Assembly (NCBI GenBank): GCA_964439815.1
Contig: CAYTPO010000142.1
Location: 6,310-70,309, forward strand
DNA: 64,000 nt
Direction of reading: 5' to 3'
Origin: an uncultured Thiotrichales bacterium
GTDB lineage: Bacteria > Pseudomonadota > Gammaproteobacteria > UWMA-0217
The notes below the pieces were generated by a model that made no database searches, had not been told where the DNA came from, and saw only the letters and a program-made list of their open reading frames with translations. The translations under genes and the position numbers were made by a program. The stretch's first letter is position 1. Each line of letters begins with the position of its first letter. Below are positions 2,108-47,172 of the stretch, one piece after another.

Positions 2108-3238
2108 TCAGCTCTTTTCCCAAATATAATCCACAACTTCGAGATCGAAACCTCCGAGGGCATGAAACTTCTTCGGGGCACTGAGCAGGCGCATCTTGCG
2201 GATACCCAGATCAAGCAGAATCTGGGCGCCGACACCAAAGGTTCGCAGATCCTCTGGCGCATTGGCGGCCTTCTTCTCTTCAGATTCGGACGGCTGACCC
2301 AGTTGGCGGATTCGTTGCACCAGATGCTGGCTCGACTCCGGCTGACGCAGGATCACCACCGCACCACACCCATCATCGGCAATACGCCGCATCGCATCAT
2401 GCAACGGCCAGCCGAATCCCTCTCCCGTTATGGCCAACTGATCCGCCAGGGAATCCTGCAGATGCACCCGTACCATGGCCGGCTGCTCACCCGCCACATC
2501 CCCCTTGACCAGCGCAAAATGGATATGCCCGGAGATATGATTCTCGTAGGTAATCAACTCGAATTCGCCAAACTCGGTTGTGATGTGCGTCTGCGCCACA
2601 CGTTCGACCGACTTTTCATTCTCGACCCGATAGTGAATCAGATCCTCGATGGTGCCGATCTTGAGATCATGCTCCGCAGCAAATTTCTCCAGATCGGGCC
2701 GCCGCGCCATCGAACCATCCTCATTGAGGATTTCAACGATGACTGCTGCAGGCTCCAACCCCGCAAGCCGTGCCAGATCACAACCGGCCTCGGTATGGCC
2801 GGCGCGGGTCAATACGCCCCCGGCCTTTGCCATCAGCGGGAAGACATGCCCGGGCTGAACGATATCTTCGGGCCGGGCATTGGGTGCAATGGCCTGGCGC
2901 ACCGTATGCGCCCGATCGTAGGCAGATATTCCGGTAGTGACCCCCTCGGCCGCCTCGATCGATACCGTAAAGTTGGTGCCATGCTCATCAGTCGCAGTCT
3001 CCACCATCAATGGCAGCGCCAACTGCTTGCAGCGCTCACGCGTCAGCGTCAGGCAGATCAGGCCCCGACCATACTGCGCCATGAAATTGATGTCTTCCGG
3101 CCGGACCATCGAGGCCGCCATCAGCAGATCACCTTCGTTCTCACGATCTTCGTCATCGACGATAATGACCATTTTCCCAGCGCGAATATCGTCCAGGATA
3201 TCTTCTACGGTATTGAATGCCATGTATTTTCCAGTCAA
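2108..3238 (-). CDS. ribBA: Bifunctional 3,4-dihydroxy-2-butanone-4-phosphate synthase / GTP cyclohydrolase II-like protein (RibBA)
   Basis: 376 aa. N-terminal DHBP synthase signature ([18 protein letters not shown]) followed by a GTP cyclohydrolase II-like C-terminal domain. Confidence 0.9.
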
Positions 3239-3918
3239 CTCATCTTGCTGCCGGTCATGAAACCGGCGGAAGCCAGCAGGGTTCGGGAAACGCCGTCATC
3301 CCCGCCGCTGTTGTCCACTTCCGCAGGCCCACCAAGCAGCAGGCGCTCCAGATATCGCGCGATGATATCGACTTCCAGATTCACCCGCGTTCCAACCGTA
3401 GCGGTATTAAGGTTGGTCTCTTCCAGCGTATGCGGGACGATATTGAGCCCAAACACATCACCATCGATACCATTCACCGTCAGGCTGATACCCTGAACGC
3501 AGATCGAACCCTTGGCGGCAATGTAACGCAACAGCGATTCGGGAGCACGAATATCCAGGCGGATGGAGCGGCCATCATCCTTTATGGAGACAATCTCCCC
3601 GACACCATCGACGTGGCCGCTGACCAGATGACCACCAAGCCGTGTCGTTGGCGTCAACGCCTTTTCCAGGTTGACTGGCGAACCACTCTCAAGAGCGCCT
3701 AGTGTCGTGCAGGCCAGCGTTTCATTGGAGACATCGGCCATGAAATGATCGGTGCCGAACTCGATCACCGTCAGGCAGACACCATTGACAGCGATACTGT
3801 CTCCCAGCGCGACGTCGCTCATATCCAGCTTGTTGACGCCAATATCGAAGCGCCTGTCACCACCCTGGGGTGATGAGCCACGCAGCTCGCCAACGGATTC
3901 GATGATTCCAGTAAACAT
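3235..3918 (-). CDS. ribE: Riboflavin synthase alpha subunit
   Basis: 227 aa. The [12 protein letters not shown]... N-terminus and two lumazine-binding repeats align with E. coli riboflavin synthase. Confidence 0.9.
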
Positions 3919-4511
3919 CAGGTCAGTACCATTTCAGGGTTATGTTGATCCAGCGTCACACAATAGCAACTCAGCGGCAAGGCCGTGGTGGTGCTGAATT
4001 CAGCGCTGGCGGTGATCGCAGCCCGGGCGATCGCTTGCGCATCATCCAGGCGATCATAGAGGGCATGCATCGCGCCCAGGGCAAACTCCGATCCCGAGCC
4101 GATGGCCCAGAAACGGGTGTATTCAAACACTTCGCGCAGGGAAAAAACCCCGAAAATGCCTTTTCTGTTGATCAGCAGCGCATCGATATGCGTCGACTCA
4201 TAGGCATCATCCTCATCCTCCTTGGGATTGAGGAAGTATTGCTCCTTCAATACCGGGTGGAGCTTGCGGAAACTGTCAAAGATCTTGCGCCGCCCGAGAA
4301 ATTCCAGATCATCGAGGCTTTCACAGGCACTTTCCAGCACCATCTGGTGTGCCGCGCTGCCAACGATACCGATATGGCTCTCGTGAGTATGAAAGACCTT
4401 GTCACTGGCCGCATCAAGCTTTGCACTCTGGCGGGTATCGCCAAAGGTGGTCAGACTGTCAGCGGCAATACAGGCCTTGTCGTTCTTGCGTACCACGACT
4501 ATGGTTGACAT
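3918..4511 (-). CDS. HslV/proteasome-beta-like Ntn-hydrolase homologue, translationally coupled between ribD and ribE
   Basis: The 197-aa ORF aligns with HslV along its whole length ([10 protein letters not shown]...[12 protein letters not shown] vs [41 protein letters not shown] vs AIGSGGPYAQAAARAL). It overlaps the ribD stop (4499-4511) and abuts the ribE start at 3918. Confidence 0.6.
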   Translation of the reverse strand: [197 protein letters not shown]

Positions 4512-5626
4512 GCGGGCCTCGCGGTAATGCGCCAGTCTTGTCCAACCGGCATGATTTCCCGGATCTGTAGTGCGATTCTTTCATTCATGGTCGAGATACC
4601 GGGAAGCGTAGCCAGCCCCCTGCCCTGATCGCCCATCAGGTGCGGCGCCATATAGACGATCAATTCATCAACCAGTGACTGCTCCAGCAACGCTCCGGCA
4701 AGTGTGGCCCCTGCCTCGACATGACATTCATTGACCTCGTGTTCGGCCAGCACCTTCAGCACCAACGGCAAATCCAGCCGATCATGCTCATGCTGCCGGG
4801 GTATCCGTACCAGCGCTGCGCCTCGCGCGATCAGCGTCTGCTGACGCCGTGCATCATCACAATCATGAATGATCAATACCCGCCCCTCGACACGCAGAAT
4901 ATTGGCATCGGGCGGGGTCCGCAAATCGCTGTCCAGAATGACACGCAGCGGTTGAGAAGGTGGTAGGGCACTACCCAGTACGGCGGGTGAAATCCGGAGG
5001 TTCATCGAAGGATTGTCCGCCAGTACGGTACCAATGCCCGTCATGATCGCGCCACTGCGGGCGCGCAACCGCTGCACATCCTCACGCGCGGCAGGGCCGG
5101 TGATCCACATGCTCTCGCCCGATGCCATCGCGGTGCGCCCATCCAGACTCATCGCCATCTTGACCCGGACCCAGGGCCGCCCGACCGTCATGCGCTTGAT
5201 GAAACCGGGATTGAGCGCCCTCGCCTCGGCTTCCAGCAAACCGCAGTCCACCGCAATCCCCTGATCGCGCAACTGGCGAATACCTCTGCCGGATACCAGC
5301 GGGTTGGGGTCTTCCATCGCAACCACAACGCGCGCGACGCGCGCTTGAATGAGTGACCGGGTACAGGGGCCTGTCTTGCCGGTGTGACTGCAGGGTTCCA
5401 GCGTGACATAGGCGGTGGCACCGCGGGCGGCATCCCCGGCAGCAACCAGGGCATTGATTTCCGCATGAGGCCCACCCGCATACTGATGATGGCCCTCACC
5501 AACGATTACCCCCTCCCGAACCAGCACGCAACCGACCCGAGGGTTGGGCTGCGTCGTATAGAGCCCACGCTTTGCCAATCGCAGCGCACGGGCCATCATG
5601 GCATGATCGGTTGCAGTAAACGGCAC
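4499..5626 (-). CDS. ribD: Bifunctional diaminohydroxyphosphoribosylaminopyrimidine deaminase / 5-amino-6-(5-phosphoribosylamino)uracil reductase
   Basis: 375 aa. CMP/dCMP deaminase zinc motif (HAEINAL...LEPCSHTGKTGPC) plus a C-terminal reductase domain. Confidence 0.9.
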   Translation of the reverse strand: MPFTATDHAMMARALRLAKRGLYTTQPNPRVGCVLVREGVIVGEGHHQYAGGPHAEINALVAAGDAARGATAYVTLEPCSHTGKTGPCTRSLIQARVARVVVAMEDPNPLVSGRGIRQLRDQGIAVDCGLLEAEARALNPGFIKRMTVGRPWVRVKMAMSLDGRTAMASGESMWITGPAAREDVQRLRARSGAIMTGIGTVLADNPSMNLRISPAVLGSALPPSQPLRVILDSDLRTPPDANILRVEGRVLIIHDCDDARRQQTLIARGAALVRIPRQHEHDRLDLPLVLKVLAEHEVNECHVEAGATLAGALLEQSLVDELIVYMAPHLMGDQGRGLATLPGISTMNERIALQIREIMPVGQDWRITARPACQP

Positions 5627-5628
5627 CG

Positions 5629-6129
5629 CTATTCGGCATCCAGAAAGGACGTCTGATGCTTGCGCATTTCCGGCGACAGATCCTTTTCGAGGCGCTCGAT
5701 GGTTTCACGAAAGGCATCCATGTCATCAAAACTGAGATACACCGAAGCAAAGCGGATATAGGCAACCTGATCCAGATTGCGCAGCTCTTCCATGACCCAT
5801 TCACCAACCCTGGCAGCAGGAATTTCGCGTATGCCGCTACTCAGCAGCTTGTACTTTATCCTGCTGACGGCGGCATCGACATCCTCGGTCCTGACCGGCC
5901 GTTTTTCCAGAGAGCGCTCGATACCACTGAGCAATTTCTGCTCATCGAATGCCTCACGTCTGCCATCGCGCTTGACCAGGCGCGGCAGATTCAGTTCGGC
6001 TGTCTCGTAGGTCGTAAAACGTTCGGAACACTCCAGGCACTGGCGACGGCGTCGCACCTGCGAACCCTCATTCGCCAATCTGGAGTCGATGACCTTGGTT
6101 TCAGTCGCCTTGCAGAATGGACAGCGCAT
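5629..6129 (-). CDS. nrdR: Transcriptional repressor NrdR
   Basis: 166 aa. [18 protein letters not shown] zinc-ribbon N-terminus plus an ATP-cone, colinear with NrdR. Confidence 0.95.
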
Positions 6130-6135
6130 GGCAGA

Positions 6136-7398
6136 TCAATCGGCCTTCTGATAGACGGGCAACCGCCCACAGATAGCCAGCACCTTCTCCCGGACCTCTG
6201 CAATTACCGTCTCGTTGTCGATATCATCAAGCACATCGCAGATCCAGCCAGCCAACTCGCGCGAGTCGGCTTCGCTGAAACCCCGTGTGGTGATGGCGGG
6301 AGAGCCAATACGGATGCCACTGGTCACGAAAGGCGACTCGGGATCATTGGGCACCGAATTCTTGTTAACGGTGATATTGGCGCTGCCCAGTGCAGCATCC
6401 GCCTGCTTGCCTGTCATGGGCTTGTCGATCAAATCCACCAGGAACAGGTGGTTGTCGGTACCGCCGGAAACGATGTTGTAACCGCGCGTCATCATAGTAT
6501 CGGCCATGGCCCGCGCATTGGTGACAACCTGCTGCTGATAGGTCTTGAAATCAGGCTCCAGCGCCTCCTTGAAGGCCACCGCCTTGGCTGCAATCACATG
6601 CATCAGCGGGCCACCTTGGGTACCGGGAAAGACCAGCGAATTGAGCTTCTTCTCGATCTCAGGATTGGATTTGGCCAGAATGATACCGCCACGTGGTCCG
6701 CGCAGCGTCTTGTGGGTCGTCGACGTAGTGACATCGGCAATCGCGACCGGGCTGGGGTAGACACCCGCCGCCACCAGTCCGGCGACGTGCGCCATGTCGA
6801 CAAACAGATAGGCGCCAACCGCATCGGCAATCTCGCGGAACCTCTGCCAGTCCACGACGCGCGAGTAGGCGGAAAACCCCGCCACGACCATTTTCGGCTT
6901 GTGCTCCCGTGCCAGCCGCTCGACCTCATCGTAATCGATCTCGCCGGTTTCGGCATTCAGACCGTACTGCACCGCATTGAACAACTTGCCGGAAAAATTG
7001 ACTTTCGCACCATGCGTCAGATGTCCACCGTGCGCCAGGCTCATGCCCAGAATGGTGTCGCCGGCATTGAGCAGCGCCAGATAGACCGCCGCGTTGGCCT
7101 GGGAGCCGGAATGTGGCTGGACGTTGGCATAATCGGCGTCGAATAGCGTCTTGACACGATCGATGGCCAGCTGTTCGGCGATATCGACATACTCGCAGCC
7201 CCCGTAGTAACGCTTGTGGGGATAACCTTCCGCATATTTGTTGGTCAACACCGAGCCCTGTGCCTCCATGACCCGGGGGCTGGTGTAATTCTCGGAGGCA
7301 ATCAGTTCTATATGCTCTTCCTGGCGGCGCTCCTCATTGGTCATCGCAGCCCACAGTTCATCATCGTAACCGGCAATCGTCATATCAGCTGAAAACAT
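6136..7398 (-). CDS. glyA: Serine hydroxymethyltransferase. The ORF-track entry is extended upstream; the real start is at [13 protein letters not shown] (ATG at 7398), preceded by GGAGG.
   Basis: Colinear with GlyA ([30 protein letters not shown]..., [11 protein letters not shown]). A ribosome-binding site precedes the internal ATG. Confidence 0.9.
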
Positions 7399-27679: not shown

Positions 27680-27910
27680 TTTCAATACTCCATAGCGAAA
27701 CATTGCGCAGACAACTCAAGAGGTCGCAACAGTGCTTCAGGGGTTAGAACCTCCACATACCCCGACTGACAACCATCATTATTGCGACGGCACCCAGCCA
27801 GCCGTGTCGGTATGTGTGTGAATTTACCTGCCACCTTCAGGTGCAGGCGCGCGCTTTATACCACAAAGAAACAGCTACTCCAACAAAAAAACGGAGCCAG
27901 ACGAGTCCAC

Positions 27911-42375: not shown

Positions 42376-44349
42376 CTATATGGAATCAGGCCCCATGTGA
42401 CCCATACCTTCCGCCTCGGTCTCGGGGTTATAACTGATCAGGCATTCCCACTTCACCTTCTTCAGGCTCCACATACCGGTTTCCTTGTCGTAGGTGCTGT
42501 TGACGAAGCATTTCCAGTTGTCATCATCCACGGCCAGAAAGTCCGTGCGGTAGAAGTACCCCGGATAACGGGTCTCTTCACGGAACTGGATGTGCTTCAT
42601 GTGCGCCGTGGCGGCCAGGATACGGTGGTGATTCTCCCAGGCACGCAGCAGTTCATGCAGGTCTTTTGCTCGCGTTTTGGTGGCATCTTCACGCAACATT
42701 TCCAGTTTGCGCTCGGCGACTCCCAGCATCACCGCGTTGGTCTGGTACATGGTGGAGACGCCAGCCACATATTCATCCATGATTTTCTGCAGACGGAACT
42801 GCAGCATCCTGGGCGTAATGTAGTTGGGATTGACATCAATGGCTGTGGTGTAGTCCTTGTGCTCCAGAAAGGTTCTTACCGGAGCATAGATTTCTTCCAC
42901 GATCTCATTTACCGGACGATCCAGCTCGCGTTTCACGTCCTTGGTATCGATGACATATTTGACCATCGCCTTGGCGGCAATCCGTCCTTCGGTAAAGGAG
43001 CCCGAGCTGAATTTGTGGCCTGAGGCGCCGACACCATCACCAGCTGTAAACAGACCATTGACCGTAGTCATGCGGTTGTAACCCCAATGGTAATGATCCG
43101 GTGAGCCTGGCAGATCTTCGGGACCCGATACCCAGATCCCAGCGCAGCCTGCGTGGGAACCCAACAGGTACGGTTCGGTAGGCATCAGTTCGGATACGTC
43201 CTTGTCGGGCTCGATATTTTCCCCTGCCCATACACCGCACTGCCCGATGGTCATGTCGAGAAAGTCTTCCCATGCTTCGGCTTCAAGGTGCTTGATCTCC
43301 TTGGGCGTCATGTTCTTCGCCAGGTTGGCCATGGCAGTAGGCGTGTCTATGAAGATCGGGCCACGACCTTCCTTCAATTCCTTCATCACGAGGTGGTTGC
43401 GCAGGCAAGTCCCCATATGGAACCCTTTTGCATACTGCGAGGCATTGACGTTTTCAAGCTCCTTGTAGTTCTTTTCCTGGTAGTCTTCGCCAAAGGCGTT
43501 GGTGGATTTGGCCTTGAACAGAAGAAACCAGGCGCCTACGGGTCCGTAACCATCCTTGAAGCGGGCGGGCACGAAGCGGTTTTCCATCAGGGTCAGTTCT
43601 GCACCAGCTTCTGCGGCCATCGCGTAGGTGGAACCGGCGTTCCAGACGGGGTACCAGGCACGCCCCATACCTTCGCCCACCGAGCGGGGACGGAAGACAT
43701 TCACGGCACCGCCACAGACTAGCAGGCAGGCTTTGAATCTGTAGATGTAGACCTTGTCTTCACGTACCGAGAAGCCGGCGGCTCCAACTACGCGAGTAGG
43801 GTCATTCTTGTCATTGAGCAATTTGACGATAAAGACGCGTTCCTGGATGTTTTCTGCGCCCAGAGCCTTCCTTGCGGCTTCTGCAACGATCCATTTGTAG
43901 GATTCGCCATTGATCATGATCTGCCAGCGACCGGAGTTGACAGGCGTACCGCCCTCTTTCAGGCTCTTGTCTTCTTCGCCTTCCTTCTTCCAGATTGGAA
44001 GCCCCCATTTCTCGAAGTTGTGAACAGAATCATCGACATGACGGCCCACATCGTAAACCAGATCTTCACGCGTCACCCCCATGAGGTCGCCACGGACATA
44101 GCGCACATAATCCGCAGGATCATTCTTGCCCATATAGGTGTTGATGGCTGACAGACCCTGTGCAACTGCACCGGAACGATCCAGGGCAGCCTTGTCGACC
44201 AGTTTCACGCTGATGTCATGGCCGTCAGCCTTGGCGGCGTCTGTCCAGCGTTTGAGTTCGAAGGCACATCCGCAGGCAGCCATGCCGCCTCCAATCAGAA
44301 GGATGTCTACTTCTTCCTCAACAACATCTGGGTTGCCGAATCCGCTCAT
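42376..44349 (-). CDS. aprA: Adenylylsulfate (APS) reductase alpha subunit
   Basis: 657 aa. FAD-binding ILLIGGGMAACG, DRSGAVAQGLSAINTY, GLPIWKKEG, and a C-terminal HMKHIQFREETRYPGYFYRTDF matching AprA. Confidence 0.85.
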   Translation of the reverse strand: MSGFGNPDVVEEEVDILLIGGGMAACGCAFELKRWTDAAKADGHDISVKLVDKAALDRSGAVAQGLSAINTYMGKNDPADYVRYVRGDLMGVTREDLVYDVGRHVDDSVHNFEKWGLPIWKKEGEEDKSLKEGGTPVNSGRWQIMINGESYKWIVAEAARKALGAENIQERVFIVKLLNDKNDPTRVVGAAGFSVREDKVYIYRFKACLLVCGGAVNVFRPRSVGEGMGRAWYPVWNAGSTYAMAAEAGAELTLMENRFVPARFKDGYGPVGAWFLLFKAKSTNAFGEDYQEKNYKELENVNASQYAKGFHMGTCLRNHLVMKELKEGRGPIFIDTPTAMANLAKNMTPKEIKHLEAEAWEDFLDMTIGQCGVWAGENIEPDKDVSELMPTEPYLLGSHAGCAGIWVSGPEDLPGSPDHYHWGYNRMTTVNGLFTAGDGVGASGHKFSSGSFTEGRIAAKAMVKYVIDTKDVKRELDRPVNEIVEEIYAPVRTFLEHKDYTTAIDVNPNYITPRMLQFRLQKIMDEYVAGVSTMYQTNAVMLGVAERKLEMLREDATKTRAKDLHELLRAWENHHRILAATAHMKHIQFREETRYPGYFYRTDFLAVDDDNWKCFVNSTYDKETGMWSLKKVKWECLISYNPETEAEGMGHMGPDSI

Positions 44350-45292: not shown

Positions 45293-46807
45293 TCAGTGGC
45301 GTCGACGACGCAATCCGAGGAAGCCGAATCCAGCGAGCATCAGCCCCATGGCACCACCACCGCCACCACCACTGGAAGAAGTATCATCCGTTGTTGGCGT
45401 GGTAGGTGTAGTTGGCGTAGTCGGGGTAGTAGGTGCCGTAGGTGTGGTTGGTGTCGTGGGGGTGGTTGGCGTAGTCGGGGTGGTTGTATCCTTACCGAGA
45501 TCAGCCGGTGCCACACATTTGCGCAAAGCGATACCAGACAGCGCTACAAGATTGTAGTTATCTTCCTTGATGTTGCTGTTTCTGACCTCAAGAGTCGCCT
45601 TGTTGCCGGGCTCGGGATCAACCTGCAGGCTGATCTGATGCCATTGGTCCGTTGTCTTGTCTTCAACCAGAGTAAACACGGGTGACGTGGCAGAGCCGGC
45701 CACCAATGTAATTTCAGCATCATCTCCACCAGTTCCAATAACTTCCGATACCGGAGCAGGATTGGAAACCCACACCTCAAACTGGTATTTGGCTTTGGGA
45801 TCAAGCCCGGAAACCGTTTGCATCCAGATTCCGGGACCACCTGACACACCAGCACCGGATGCCAGGAGGTAGCCCGGCGCCTTGTCCAACGCAGGAATAT
45901 CACCCGCCTTCTTGGCGCCTGGGAACGGATATTGGAAATGAGACAGGTCTGTAATCGTGATATTACTGGCCGGCGCAACACCAGGTGCCGCAGCAATCTC
46001 GGTCACCAGCGCAACCTCCTTGTAATTGGCAAAGGTGTTGTCTCCCACGAATTTGTAGTCACTCTTGAAGGATTTGGCGATGAGGCTATTGGGAGGTAGC
46101 GGGGTAGTCTTGCCATCGGCACCTTTAGGCAGAGCACCATGTGGTGTTGAGAAATCACCATTAACCACCTTATTGGTGGTATCCGGTACTGTCCCTTGAG
46201 GACAAACCGATGCATGGGCAGATGGGGCTGATGGCAATATGAAGGTTGCGGAATCCGTCTTGCCGTTCATGTCTGCAGTCGAGGTAAAGGGCCCCTTGTT
46301 TGCAGTACCCACATCAACGGTGACGTCATAACGAACAATAATGGAAGAATAGGGAGACAGCTTCTCCTTGTCTGCGAAAATCTTGTCGCCCTTGTCAGCT
46401 CCGGTTGCTACCCCGGCAAAACCAGGATTCAACGTCAGGGTTGCATTCTGAAAATTGGCCTTGGGTTTTTTTGTGCTGTTCTCATCCTGTACCACCTCAT
46501 CCAGAATGGTCAGATTCTCGACCTTTACCGAATTGCGGATCGCTGCAGGAAAACTGTTCTTGATGGCGTCTGTAATCTGTACTTCCACAGCTGCAGGAGG
46601 CGTTCCCGTCGCGGGAATGGTGTCGTCATTAATGATGCGTTGCTGTATAGAGAAAGTATATTTCGTTCCGACGGCTGTAATTGGTCCCTTCACCTCACGC
46701 AGAAACTGCAAGGCAGCATCGACATCCATACTGAATGTAAGGCTGGAAACAGCCAGAACACCTGCTGCCAATGGAGTGAGTGAGAAAAACTTGCGACTTT
46801 TCGACAT
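45293..46807 (-). CDS. Secreted protein with a Thr-Pro repeat linker and a C-terminal GlyGly-CTERM-like sorting signal (candidate rhombosortase substrate). The real start is MSKSRKFF.
   Basis: Signal peptide. C-terminus reads (TTP)n...SSSGGGGGGAMGLMLAGFGFLGLRRRRH, a Gly run followed by a hydrophobic helix and an Arg cluster. Confidence 0.6.
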   Translation of the reverse strand: MSKSRKFFSLTPLAAGVLAVSSLTFSMDVDAALQFLREVKGPITAVGTKYTFSIQQRIINDDTIPATGTPPAAVEVQITDAIKNSFPAAIRNSVKVENLTILDEVVQDENSTKKPKANFQNATLTLNPGFAGVATGADKGDKIFADKEKLSPYSSIIVRYDVTVDVGTANKGPFTSTADMNGKTDSATFILPSAPSAHASVCPQGTVPDTTNKVVNGDFSTPHGALPKGADGKTTPLPPNSLIAKSFKSDYKFVGDNTFANYKEVALVTEIAAAPGVAPASNITITDLSHFQYPFPGAKKAGDIPALDKAPGYLLASGAGVSGGPGIWMQTVSGLDPKAKYQFEVWVSNPAPVSEVIGTGGDDAEITLVAGSATSPVFTLVEDKTTDQWHQISLQVDPEPGNKATLEVRNSNIKEDNYNLVALSGIALRKCVAPADLGKDTTTPTTPTTPTTPTTPTAPTTPTTPTTPTTPTTDDTSSSGGGGGGAMGLMLAGFGFLGLRRRRH

Positions 46808-47172
46808 GGAATTACCTTTAGTACAGAAATGTTTATAGTGTGGTATCAATCTGGAGAATCCGTGGCAGCGTACCCAATATAAAGCCACCTTCAGACCACG
46901 GGTTCATGGCGCGACCGGGTTTTGAACTCCAGATCCAGCAAGCCCTGCTGAATTCTTCATGCTGCCCTGATATATCGGGCATTTCCCTGATCGTAGCACG
47001 GTGCGACAACCCAAAACTGTGACGCAGTTGCAAGCACACCTGACTATGGCGTCTGCGACAGAAAAAAAGAGAAGCTTTACTTCAATCCAATTGATTATAG
47101 TGCAAACCGCCCACTGTCGTAACTTCACATAGGAAGACAGAGCTACCATACATAACATTCATTTCCCAGTAC

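Follow-up and report, generated by a model that had tools for sequence, protein, structure and literature searches.

Introduction

Bacterial proteasome homologues (BPHs) have had solved structures since 2017, yet the family is still without a known substrate, a partner or a phenotype. Its hallmark is a pore loop that is long, acidic and disordered (Fuchs et al. 2018, PMC5777263), and its genes are found in three prevailing contexts, namely arginine biosynthesis (argG/argF), the pyruvate dehydrogenase complex and hsp33 (Valas & Bourne 2008, PMC3235984; Fuchs et al. 2018, PMC5777263), which have been read as stress-linked, constitutively expressed operons (PMC3235984, PMC5777263). BPHs outside the Betaproteobacteria that carry serine at residue 1 have already been published (Fuchs et al. 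2018, PMC5777263), among them the gammaproteobacterial protein of Thioploca ingrica, (M)STVVVVKKQG, shown in Fig. S3 of PMC5777263. Here we describe a BPH gene in a different setting. It lies in a 64,000-nt stretch of contig CAYTPO010000142.1 (hereafter, the window) from an uncultured Thiotrichales bacterium, where a 197-aa open reading frame (ORF) at 3918..4511 on the minus strand, with an ATG start, is lodged between the riboflavin genes ribD and ribE. We refer to this Ser1-type gene as bph.

The family and its Ser1 variant were thus known; new is a conserved riboflavin-operon position in a broad, sulfur-oxidiser-like gammaproteobacterial group, termed the rib class below. A riboflavin context of BPH is mentioned neither in PMC3235984 and PMC5777263 nor in a 2021 survey of proteasome homologues (PMC8665760), and full-text literature searches that paired BPH or HslV with riboflavin returned nothing relevant, many subscription papers being outside their scope. 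As far as could be checked, ribD-bph-ribE is therefore a fourth, conserved and apparently undescribed BPH context, in agreement with the original prediction made from the bare sequence, which knew of no precedent for such a placement.

The ORF encodes a BPH

When the ORF product was compared with PDB sequences by phmmer, the best matches were the BPHs of Cupriavidus metallidurans (Cm-BPH; 5ovu, E 1.3e-49) and Thiobacillus denitrificans (Td-BPH; 5ovs/5ovt, E 2.7e-38), with the best HslV at E 2.7e-3 and 20S beta subunits above E 0.2. The sole Pfam match was a weak one to PF00227 Proteasome (28.7 bits), and NCBIfam matches were likewise confined to proteasome and HslV models; no unrelated family came out on top. 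These NCBIfam scores fell far below the family cut-offs, both for HslV (NF003964, 34.1 bits vs 137; TIGR03692, 34.1 bits vs 157.75) and for 20S beta subunits (TIGR03690, 22.8 bits vs 191.9; TIGR03634, 21.8 bits vs 224), which means that the ORF is not an HslV orthologue. The claim that it aligns end to end with HslV thus holds only weakly at the level of sequence. In a neighbour-joining tree the ORF falls inside BPH and HslV sits on a long branch.

An AlphaFold2 monomer model, built from 62 homologues (pLDDT 85, pTM 0.83), gave the expected Ntn fold. Its six top PDB matches in Foldseek were all BPH protomers (target-normalised TM 0.87-0.92), followed by HslV chains (TM 0.63-0.81). Taking all TM values together, the BPH entries span 0.82-0.92 and HslV 0.56-0.81. 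The only internal segment of low pLDDT, residues 96-106, is an acidic stretch ([11 protein letters not shown]), consistent with the disordered acidic pore loop of the BPH crystal structures (PMC5777263). In mature numbering this loop, which HslV does not have, spans approximately residues 95-105 ([11 protein letters not shown]), and its PK[DE]4-5xYE pattern is kept in all rib-class members. By sequence, predicted fold and active-site register, the ORF is a genuine member of the BPH family.

Other assignments within the wider superfamily were considered and discarded. HslV orthology is rejected on the family scores, 34 bits where 137 and 158 are required, and on the PDB E-values. Anbu is ruled out, as no Anbu chain appeared among the PDB sequence matches to E 10 or among the top 50 fold matches; none of the Anbu operon partners (COG2307, COG2308 and a transglutaminase) is found among the neighbours of the ORF. 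Of the BPH/Anbu-like, ATPase-independent Ntn hydrolase that had been predicted, it is hence BPH proper that sequence, predicted fold and synteny single out. A 20S proteasome beta subunit is ruled out by the scores, by the lack of a propeptide and by the lack of a second proteasome-like ORF in the window. Lastly, Pfam and NCBIfam revealed no homology to an enzyme of the riboflavin pathway (RibA/B/D/E/H or the HAD-type ARPP phosphatase).

Public annotation is a poor guide to this family. NCBI records call several BPH homologues 'MFS transporter' (P0018, P0034, P0051, P0070 and P0114 in our homologue set), and JGI calls them 'HslV'. NCBIfam holds no BPH-specific model, with the consequence that the family is systematically mis-annotated.

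The N-terminus and the predicted nucleophile

The protein begins [18 protein letters not shown], its first codons being ATG-TCA-ACC in the reading M-S-T-I-V-V-V-R-K. The original prediction had taken this Met-Ser-Thr start to be out of step with HslV, in which Met-Thr exposes Thr1. However, E. coli HslV opens M-T-T-I-V, the Ralstonia BPH gene opens M-T-T-C-V-V-V and the 5ovu chain of Cm-BPH opens T-T-C-V-V-V, so that Met-Ser-Thr is in register after all. Since S-T-I-V-V-V falls exactly on the T-T of HslV and BPH, Ser1 replaces Thr1 and Thr2 is retained, and neither a propeptide nor autoprocessing is needed. Among the explanations offered for the unusual start, Ser1 as the nucleophile is the one supported, rather than a different start or the removal of two residues by autoprocessing. 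An N-terminal extension, a Thr nucleophile at position 3 and a propeptide are all ruled out by the T-T-C-V start of the 5ovu chain.

In mature numbering the product carries Ser1, Thr2, Asp17, Lys37, GxxG at 47-50 and GSG at 137-139 (Asp17 and Lys37 being D18 and K38 in gene numbering), and over the first 26 residues it shares 50% identity with E. coli HslV. A Ser that follows the start Met provides a favourable context for methionine aminopeptidase. Judged from the sequence, Ser1 is thus the supported nucleophile, with the start Met predicted to be removed. Serine at this position is at least as frequent as threonine among the 150 best representatives of 50%-identity clusters, ~65 of which start M-S-x and ~44 M-T-x.

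The ribD-bph-ribE junctions and their surroundings

The gene is tightly coupled on both sides, as had been predicted. The last 13 nt of ribD (4499..5626, minus strand, GTG start; bifunctional deaminase/reductase with deaminase and RibD_C domains) overlap the start of bph, and the bph TGA shares one base, at 3918, with the ATG of ribE/ribC (3235..3918, minus strand; riboflavin synthase, Lum_binding). A Shine-Dalgarno-like GAGG lies ~7 nt upstream of the bph ATG. The conserved block on the minus strand reads glyA-nrdR-ribD-bph-ribE-ribBA, with all junctions between -13 and +11 nt. It opens with glyA (6136..7398; serine hydroxymethyltransferase), followed after 6 nt by nrdR (5629..6129) and after another 2 nt by ribD; ribBA (2108..3223; DHBP synthase and GTP cyclohydrolase II) follows ribE after 11 nt and closes the tight cluster, with accA beyond a gap of 316 nt. 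Pfam bears out the nrdR, ribD, ribE and ribBA assignments made earlier, and the contig also occurs, with identical gene calls, in a public metagenome assembly.

A simple promoter and terminator scan found nothing convincing within the minus-strand block from glyA to ribBA, and an Rfam scan of the window revealed neither an FMN riboswitch nor any other Rfam element near the operon. As had been noted before, no hslU is nearby: tblastn with E. coli HslU and HslV detected neither hslU nor a second hslV in the 64 kb (best HslU E 0.5), and no second proteasome-like ORF was found there.

The remaining window is ordinary core chromosome, with rpsB-tsf-pyrH, cdsA-dxr-rseP-bamA-lpxD, hisC/hisD and pyrD as well as a murA-like gene of the EPSP-synthase family and a cytochrome b gene. 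A t44 sRNA (RF00127, 66 bits) at 27743-27838 on the minus strand lies directly upstream of rpsB-tsf, its usual gammaproteobacterial site. Two minus-strand ORFs, at 42376-44349 (657 aa) and 45293-46888 (531 aa), are without a Pfam match at E<=1e-8. A 188-aa ORF on the plus strand (3942-4508) shadows bph exactly and is almost certainly non-coding.

Conservation across related bacteria

Homologues of the ORF are numerous: 4722 clusters at 90% identity with E<=1e-3, the best being 79-80% identical to it, and 207 clusters at 50% identity with E<=1e-30. We surveyed their genomic surroundings in two samples. For the first, one GTDB genome per species was scanned, the 80 closest loci were kept, and these were probed with neighbouring genes from the window and from two other loci. 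The rib class accounts for 29 of the 80, with the order glyA-nrdR-ribD-BPH-ribE-(ribBA)-(ribH-nusB-thiL) and an N-terminus of MST or VST; its organisms are labelled Gammaproteobacteria, Thiotrichales, Thiotrichaceae, Ectothiorhodospiraceae, Ca. Oxydemutatoraceae and 'Porisulfidus'. The other 51 form a gluQ/hsp15 class (Casimicrobiaceae, Burkholderiales and Betaproteobacteria), in which proS-SLT-gluQ-BPH is followed by FMN_bind_2-hsp15 and the N-terminus is MTT. The second sample consisted of 80 metagenome loci from a scan seeded with another BPH representative, whose pattern MSTIVVV[KR]K favours Ser1 proteins; here, 41 loci had the rib context (all Ser1), ten the pyruvate dehydrogenase context and four the gluQ context (both all Thr1), while the remaining 25 had another context or lay on contigs too short to classify (19 Ser1, 6 Thr1). 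Of the contexts in which Ser1 BPHs were seen here, a fixed, tightly coupled ribD|ribE slot, spread over many gammaproteobacterial lineages, is thus the largest class.

Within the rib class, the bph-ribE junction measures -1 to +16 nt in nearly all loci (TGATG, TAATG and the like) and the ribD-bph junction -13 to ~+80 nt. No HslU-like gene was present in the flanks of the 29 and 41 related loci. Gene order is still kept where identity is down to 47-50% in RibD and 56% in BPH, indicating that the insertion is old. Together with a GC content of bph (0.55-0.57) that matches its neighbours, this ancient synteny rules out a recent horizontal insertion. In the neighbour-joining tree the rib-class sequences group together, with the Thr1 gluQ/hsp15 class as sister and Cm-BPH and Td-BPH outside.

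The proteins themselves are equally well kept. In a comparison of 27 distinct rib-class proteins, 42 residues never vary, including (in gene numbering) S2, T3, D18, K38 and, as glycines of the oxyanion and GSG motifs, G48, G138 and G140; the acidic loop is conserved as well. Pairwise dN/dS values of 0.02-0.19 show that bph is under strong purifying selection. In the relatives, then, the frame is intact and the rib position is maintained in 29 species genomes. The database homologues, the invariant residues and the dN/dS values rule out a pseudogene or chance ORF. A feature peculiar to the rib-class members of 196-198 aa (P0010, P0018, P0023, P0034, P0046 and P0070) is a common 8-residue C-terminal tail of low pLDDT, which ends in the pattern (T)P[KE]T[VIM][LMI][VT], corresponds to codons 3918-3945 of the window and is absent in members of 188-191 aa.

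Several further loci deserve mention. At L085 (10400-11755; also L031 and L086), in a relative labelled Thiotrichales/Chromatiales, a 451-aa S41 peptidase of the Ctp/tail-specific-protease type, with a PDZ domain, is encoded between ribBA and ribH; as this operon already holds a BPH gene, two protease genes share one riboflavin operon. In Casimicrobiaceae and betaproteobacterial metagenome-assembled genomes (L082, 6841-7867, and ~45 other loci of class H, e.g. L012, L014 and L016), a Thr1 BPH follows proS-SLT-gluQ, and FMN_bind_2 (PF04299, PaiB-like) lies ~250 nt downstream of bph, overlapping hsp15 (hslR); this gluQ/FMN_bind_2/hsp15 context is likewise absent from the published BPH papers. 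The gene of a transglutaminase-core protein at L165 (3451-4968) precedes that of a Ser1 BPH by 33 nt, recalling the Anbu-transglutaminase association that has been described for Anbu, not for BPH. In 18 more metagenome loci, the neighbours identifiable by Pfam were Hsp33, transglutaminase-like and thioesterase-domain proteins, and several neighbours were without a Pfam match.

The published pyruvate dehydrogenase context was recovered in Ralstonia, where BPH is encoded inside the operon in the order E1-E2-BPH-Lpd. The arrangement E2-BPH-Lpd shows that being wedged between two housekeeping enzyme genes is the normal style of the family. A scan of a plasmid database gave one match only, in this same context: a 2.3-Mb record labelled as a megaplasmid (L087; NZ_CP115947.1, Ralstonia solanacearum MolK2 'plasmid pmega') with aceE-aceF-BPH-lpd, unannotated in PLSDB.

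Discussion

What might such a protein do within a riboflavin operon? Taking the evidence together, we consider it likely, with a probability of roughly 0.8, that the gene encodes a Ser1 BPH that works as an ATPase-independent double-ring peptidase and is co-expressed within a housekeeping operon. Removal of the start Met would expose the Ser1 nucleophile, presumably helped by Asp17 and Lys37. By homology, protomers with the proteasome-beta Ntn fold would assemble into a homo-oligomeric double heptameric ring, a 14-mer in the solved BPHs, with the active sites inside and the long acidic loops probably lining the pore. Such a complex would be expected to act without an AAA+ partner, as no ATPase partner of BPHs was recovered by pull-down and no association with HslU was seen (PMC5777263). 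It may thus be a self-compartmentalising Ser1 peptidase of narrow or unusual substrate range. As for the gene, a single insertion between ribD and ribE in a wide gammaproteobacterial clade, then kept under purifying selection, would account for its distribution, and we predict bph to be co-transcribed and translationally coupled with glyA-nrdR-ribD-ribE-ribBA. Since no FMN riboswitch is detectable in the operon, the protein would be made constitutively beside housekeeping enzymes, its position probably serving expression rather than a riboflavin-specific function.

Some points weigh against this picture. In proteasomes, a serine at position 1 makes a poorer nucleophile. The ribD/ribE linkage, ancient and exception-free over ~70 loci, is stronger than hitch-hiking on an expressed operon requires. 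The solved BPHs, moreover, were inert in vitro on all peptides tried and on casein (PMC5777263). With no BPH proteolysis seen in vitro, the term 'peptidase' rests on the binding of inhibitors to Thr1 BPHs, not to the Ser1 type: the reaction of epoxomicin and MG132 with BPH residue 1 follows the classical proteasome pattern (PMC5777263).

The strength of the linkage is also the starting point for a flavin-specific role, in which the BPH barrel would control the turnover or quality of RibD, RibE, RibBA or RibH, or clear proteins damaged by reactive intermediates, and in which being co-translated stoichiometrically with ribD and ribE would itself have a function. The ribD|ribE slot is invariant in the 29 species genomes and 41 metagenome contigs, its junctions are tight or overlapping, and the correlation between Ser1 and the rib context is perfect. 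Loose echoes may be heard elsewhere in the family, with FMN_bind_2 downstream of the Thr1-class gene and the FAD enzyme Lpd directly downstream of the pyruvate dehydrogenase-class gene. However, FMN_bind_2, given its distance from bph and its overlap with hsp15, probably belongs to a separate transcription unit, and a general flavin link across BPH contexts fails in the 18 further metagenome loci with their Hsp33, transglutaminase-like and thioesterase neighbours. We also know of no riboflavin step that needs an amide hydrolase. Above all, other BPH clades, 50-62% identical and alike in active site and acidic loop, occur in operons that have nothing to do with flavins (gluQ, hsp33, transglutaminase-like and thioesterase; argG according to the literature), and because these sister clades do without any such link, we judge a riboflavin-specific function unlikely. 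Its most committed form, with the Ser1 BPH as a dedicated component of flavin metabolism, that is, a compartmentalised hydrolase for the abundance or quality of the rib enzymes or for damaged proteins, would explain why the translational coupling between ribD and ribE has lasted across ~70 independent loci, but we consider it quite unlikely.

Might the protein not be a protease at all? It could be a transpeptidase or ligase, like connectase, or a purely structural ring protein that has kept its Ntn residues. The inertness of the solved BPHs and the weaker Ser1 nucleophile would fit, and a ligase belongs to the proteasome-like family (PMC7980362). Yet the catalytic set is complete and, under strong purifying selection, invariant, the BPH nucleophile reacts classically with the two inhibitors named above, and the modelled fold and ring-forming helices resemble those of BPH, unlike monomeric connectase, which makes this reading very unlikely. 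That the ORF is the genome's HslV, partnered by an HslU encoded elsewhere, would suit the JGI labels, the weak HslV HMM matches and the resemblance of its N-terminal 26 residues to E. coli HslV, but is exceedingly improbable given the scores far under both cut-offs, PDB E-values ~47 orders of magnitude better for BPH, an acidic pore-loop insertion that HslV lacks, no hslU within 64 kb and the negative HslU pull-downs (PMC5777263).

The rib slot adds a fourth and very clean genomic association to the three that have been published. If the flavin role were true, it would provide a first class of physiological substrates for a BPH; if the position reflects expression hitch-hiking alone, the locus is a routine addition to the distribution of the family.

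Relation to known systems

Anbu resembles the present protein in being an ATPase-independent bacterial proteasome homologue of no assigned function, and differs from it in that no Anbu chain is found among the ORF's PDB sequence matches to E 10 or its top 50 fold matches, and in its operon partners. CodW, the HslV homologue of Bacillus subtilis, offers a parallel at the N-terminus, as it is reported to be a proteasome-family peptidase with an N-terminal Ser (as cited in PMC5777263). Unlike the BPH gene, however, it is an HslV orthologue that needs the CodX ATPase encoded beside it, and its similarity to the ORF is marginal (2z3a, E 0.26). HslV (ClpQ) in general has the Ntn beta-sandwich fold, the N-terminal T/S-T-I-V strand, Asp17, the catalytic Lys and the GSG motif in common with the ORF, and is probably the evolutionary ancestor of BPH. 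What separates the two are the family scores, the long acidic pore-loop insertion, Ser1 and a locus without hslU; HslV rings are hexameric, whereas those of the ORF's solved relatives are heptameric.

The closest likeness is to the solved BPHs themselves, 5OVU and 5OVS/5OVT, to which the ORF is 48% and 38% identical over its full length and with which it shares the predicted fold. The [T/S]1-T2...D17...K37 register, the acidic KEDEDD pore loop, the absence of a propeptide and of an adjacent ATPase, and the habit of lodging between enzyme genes of a housekeeping operon (E2-BPH-E3 in Ralstonia and Cupriavidus) are all common to them. Against this shared ground, the present protein stands out by Ser1 in place of Thr1, a gammaproteobacterial host, the ribD-bph-ribE context and the 8-residue C-terminal tail of its subclade.

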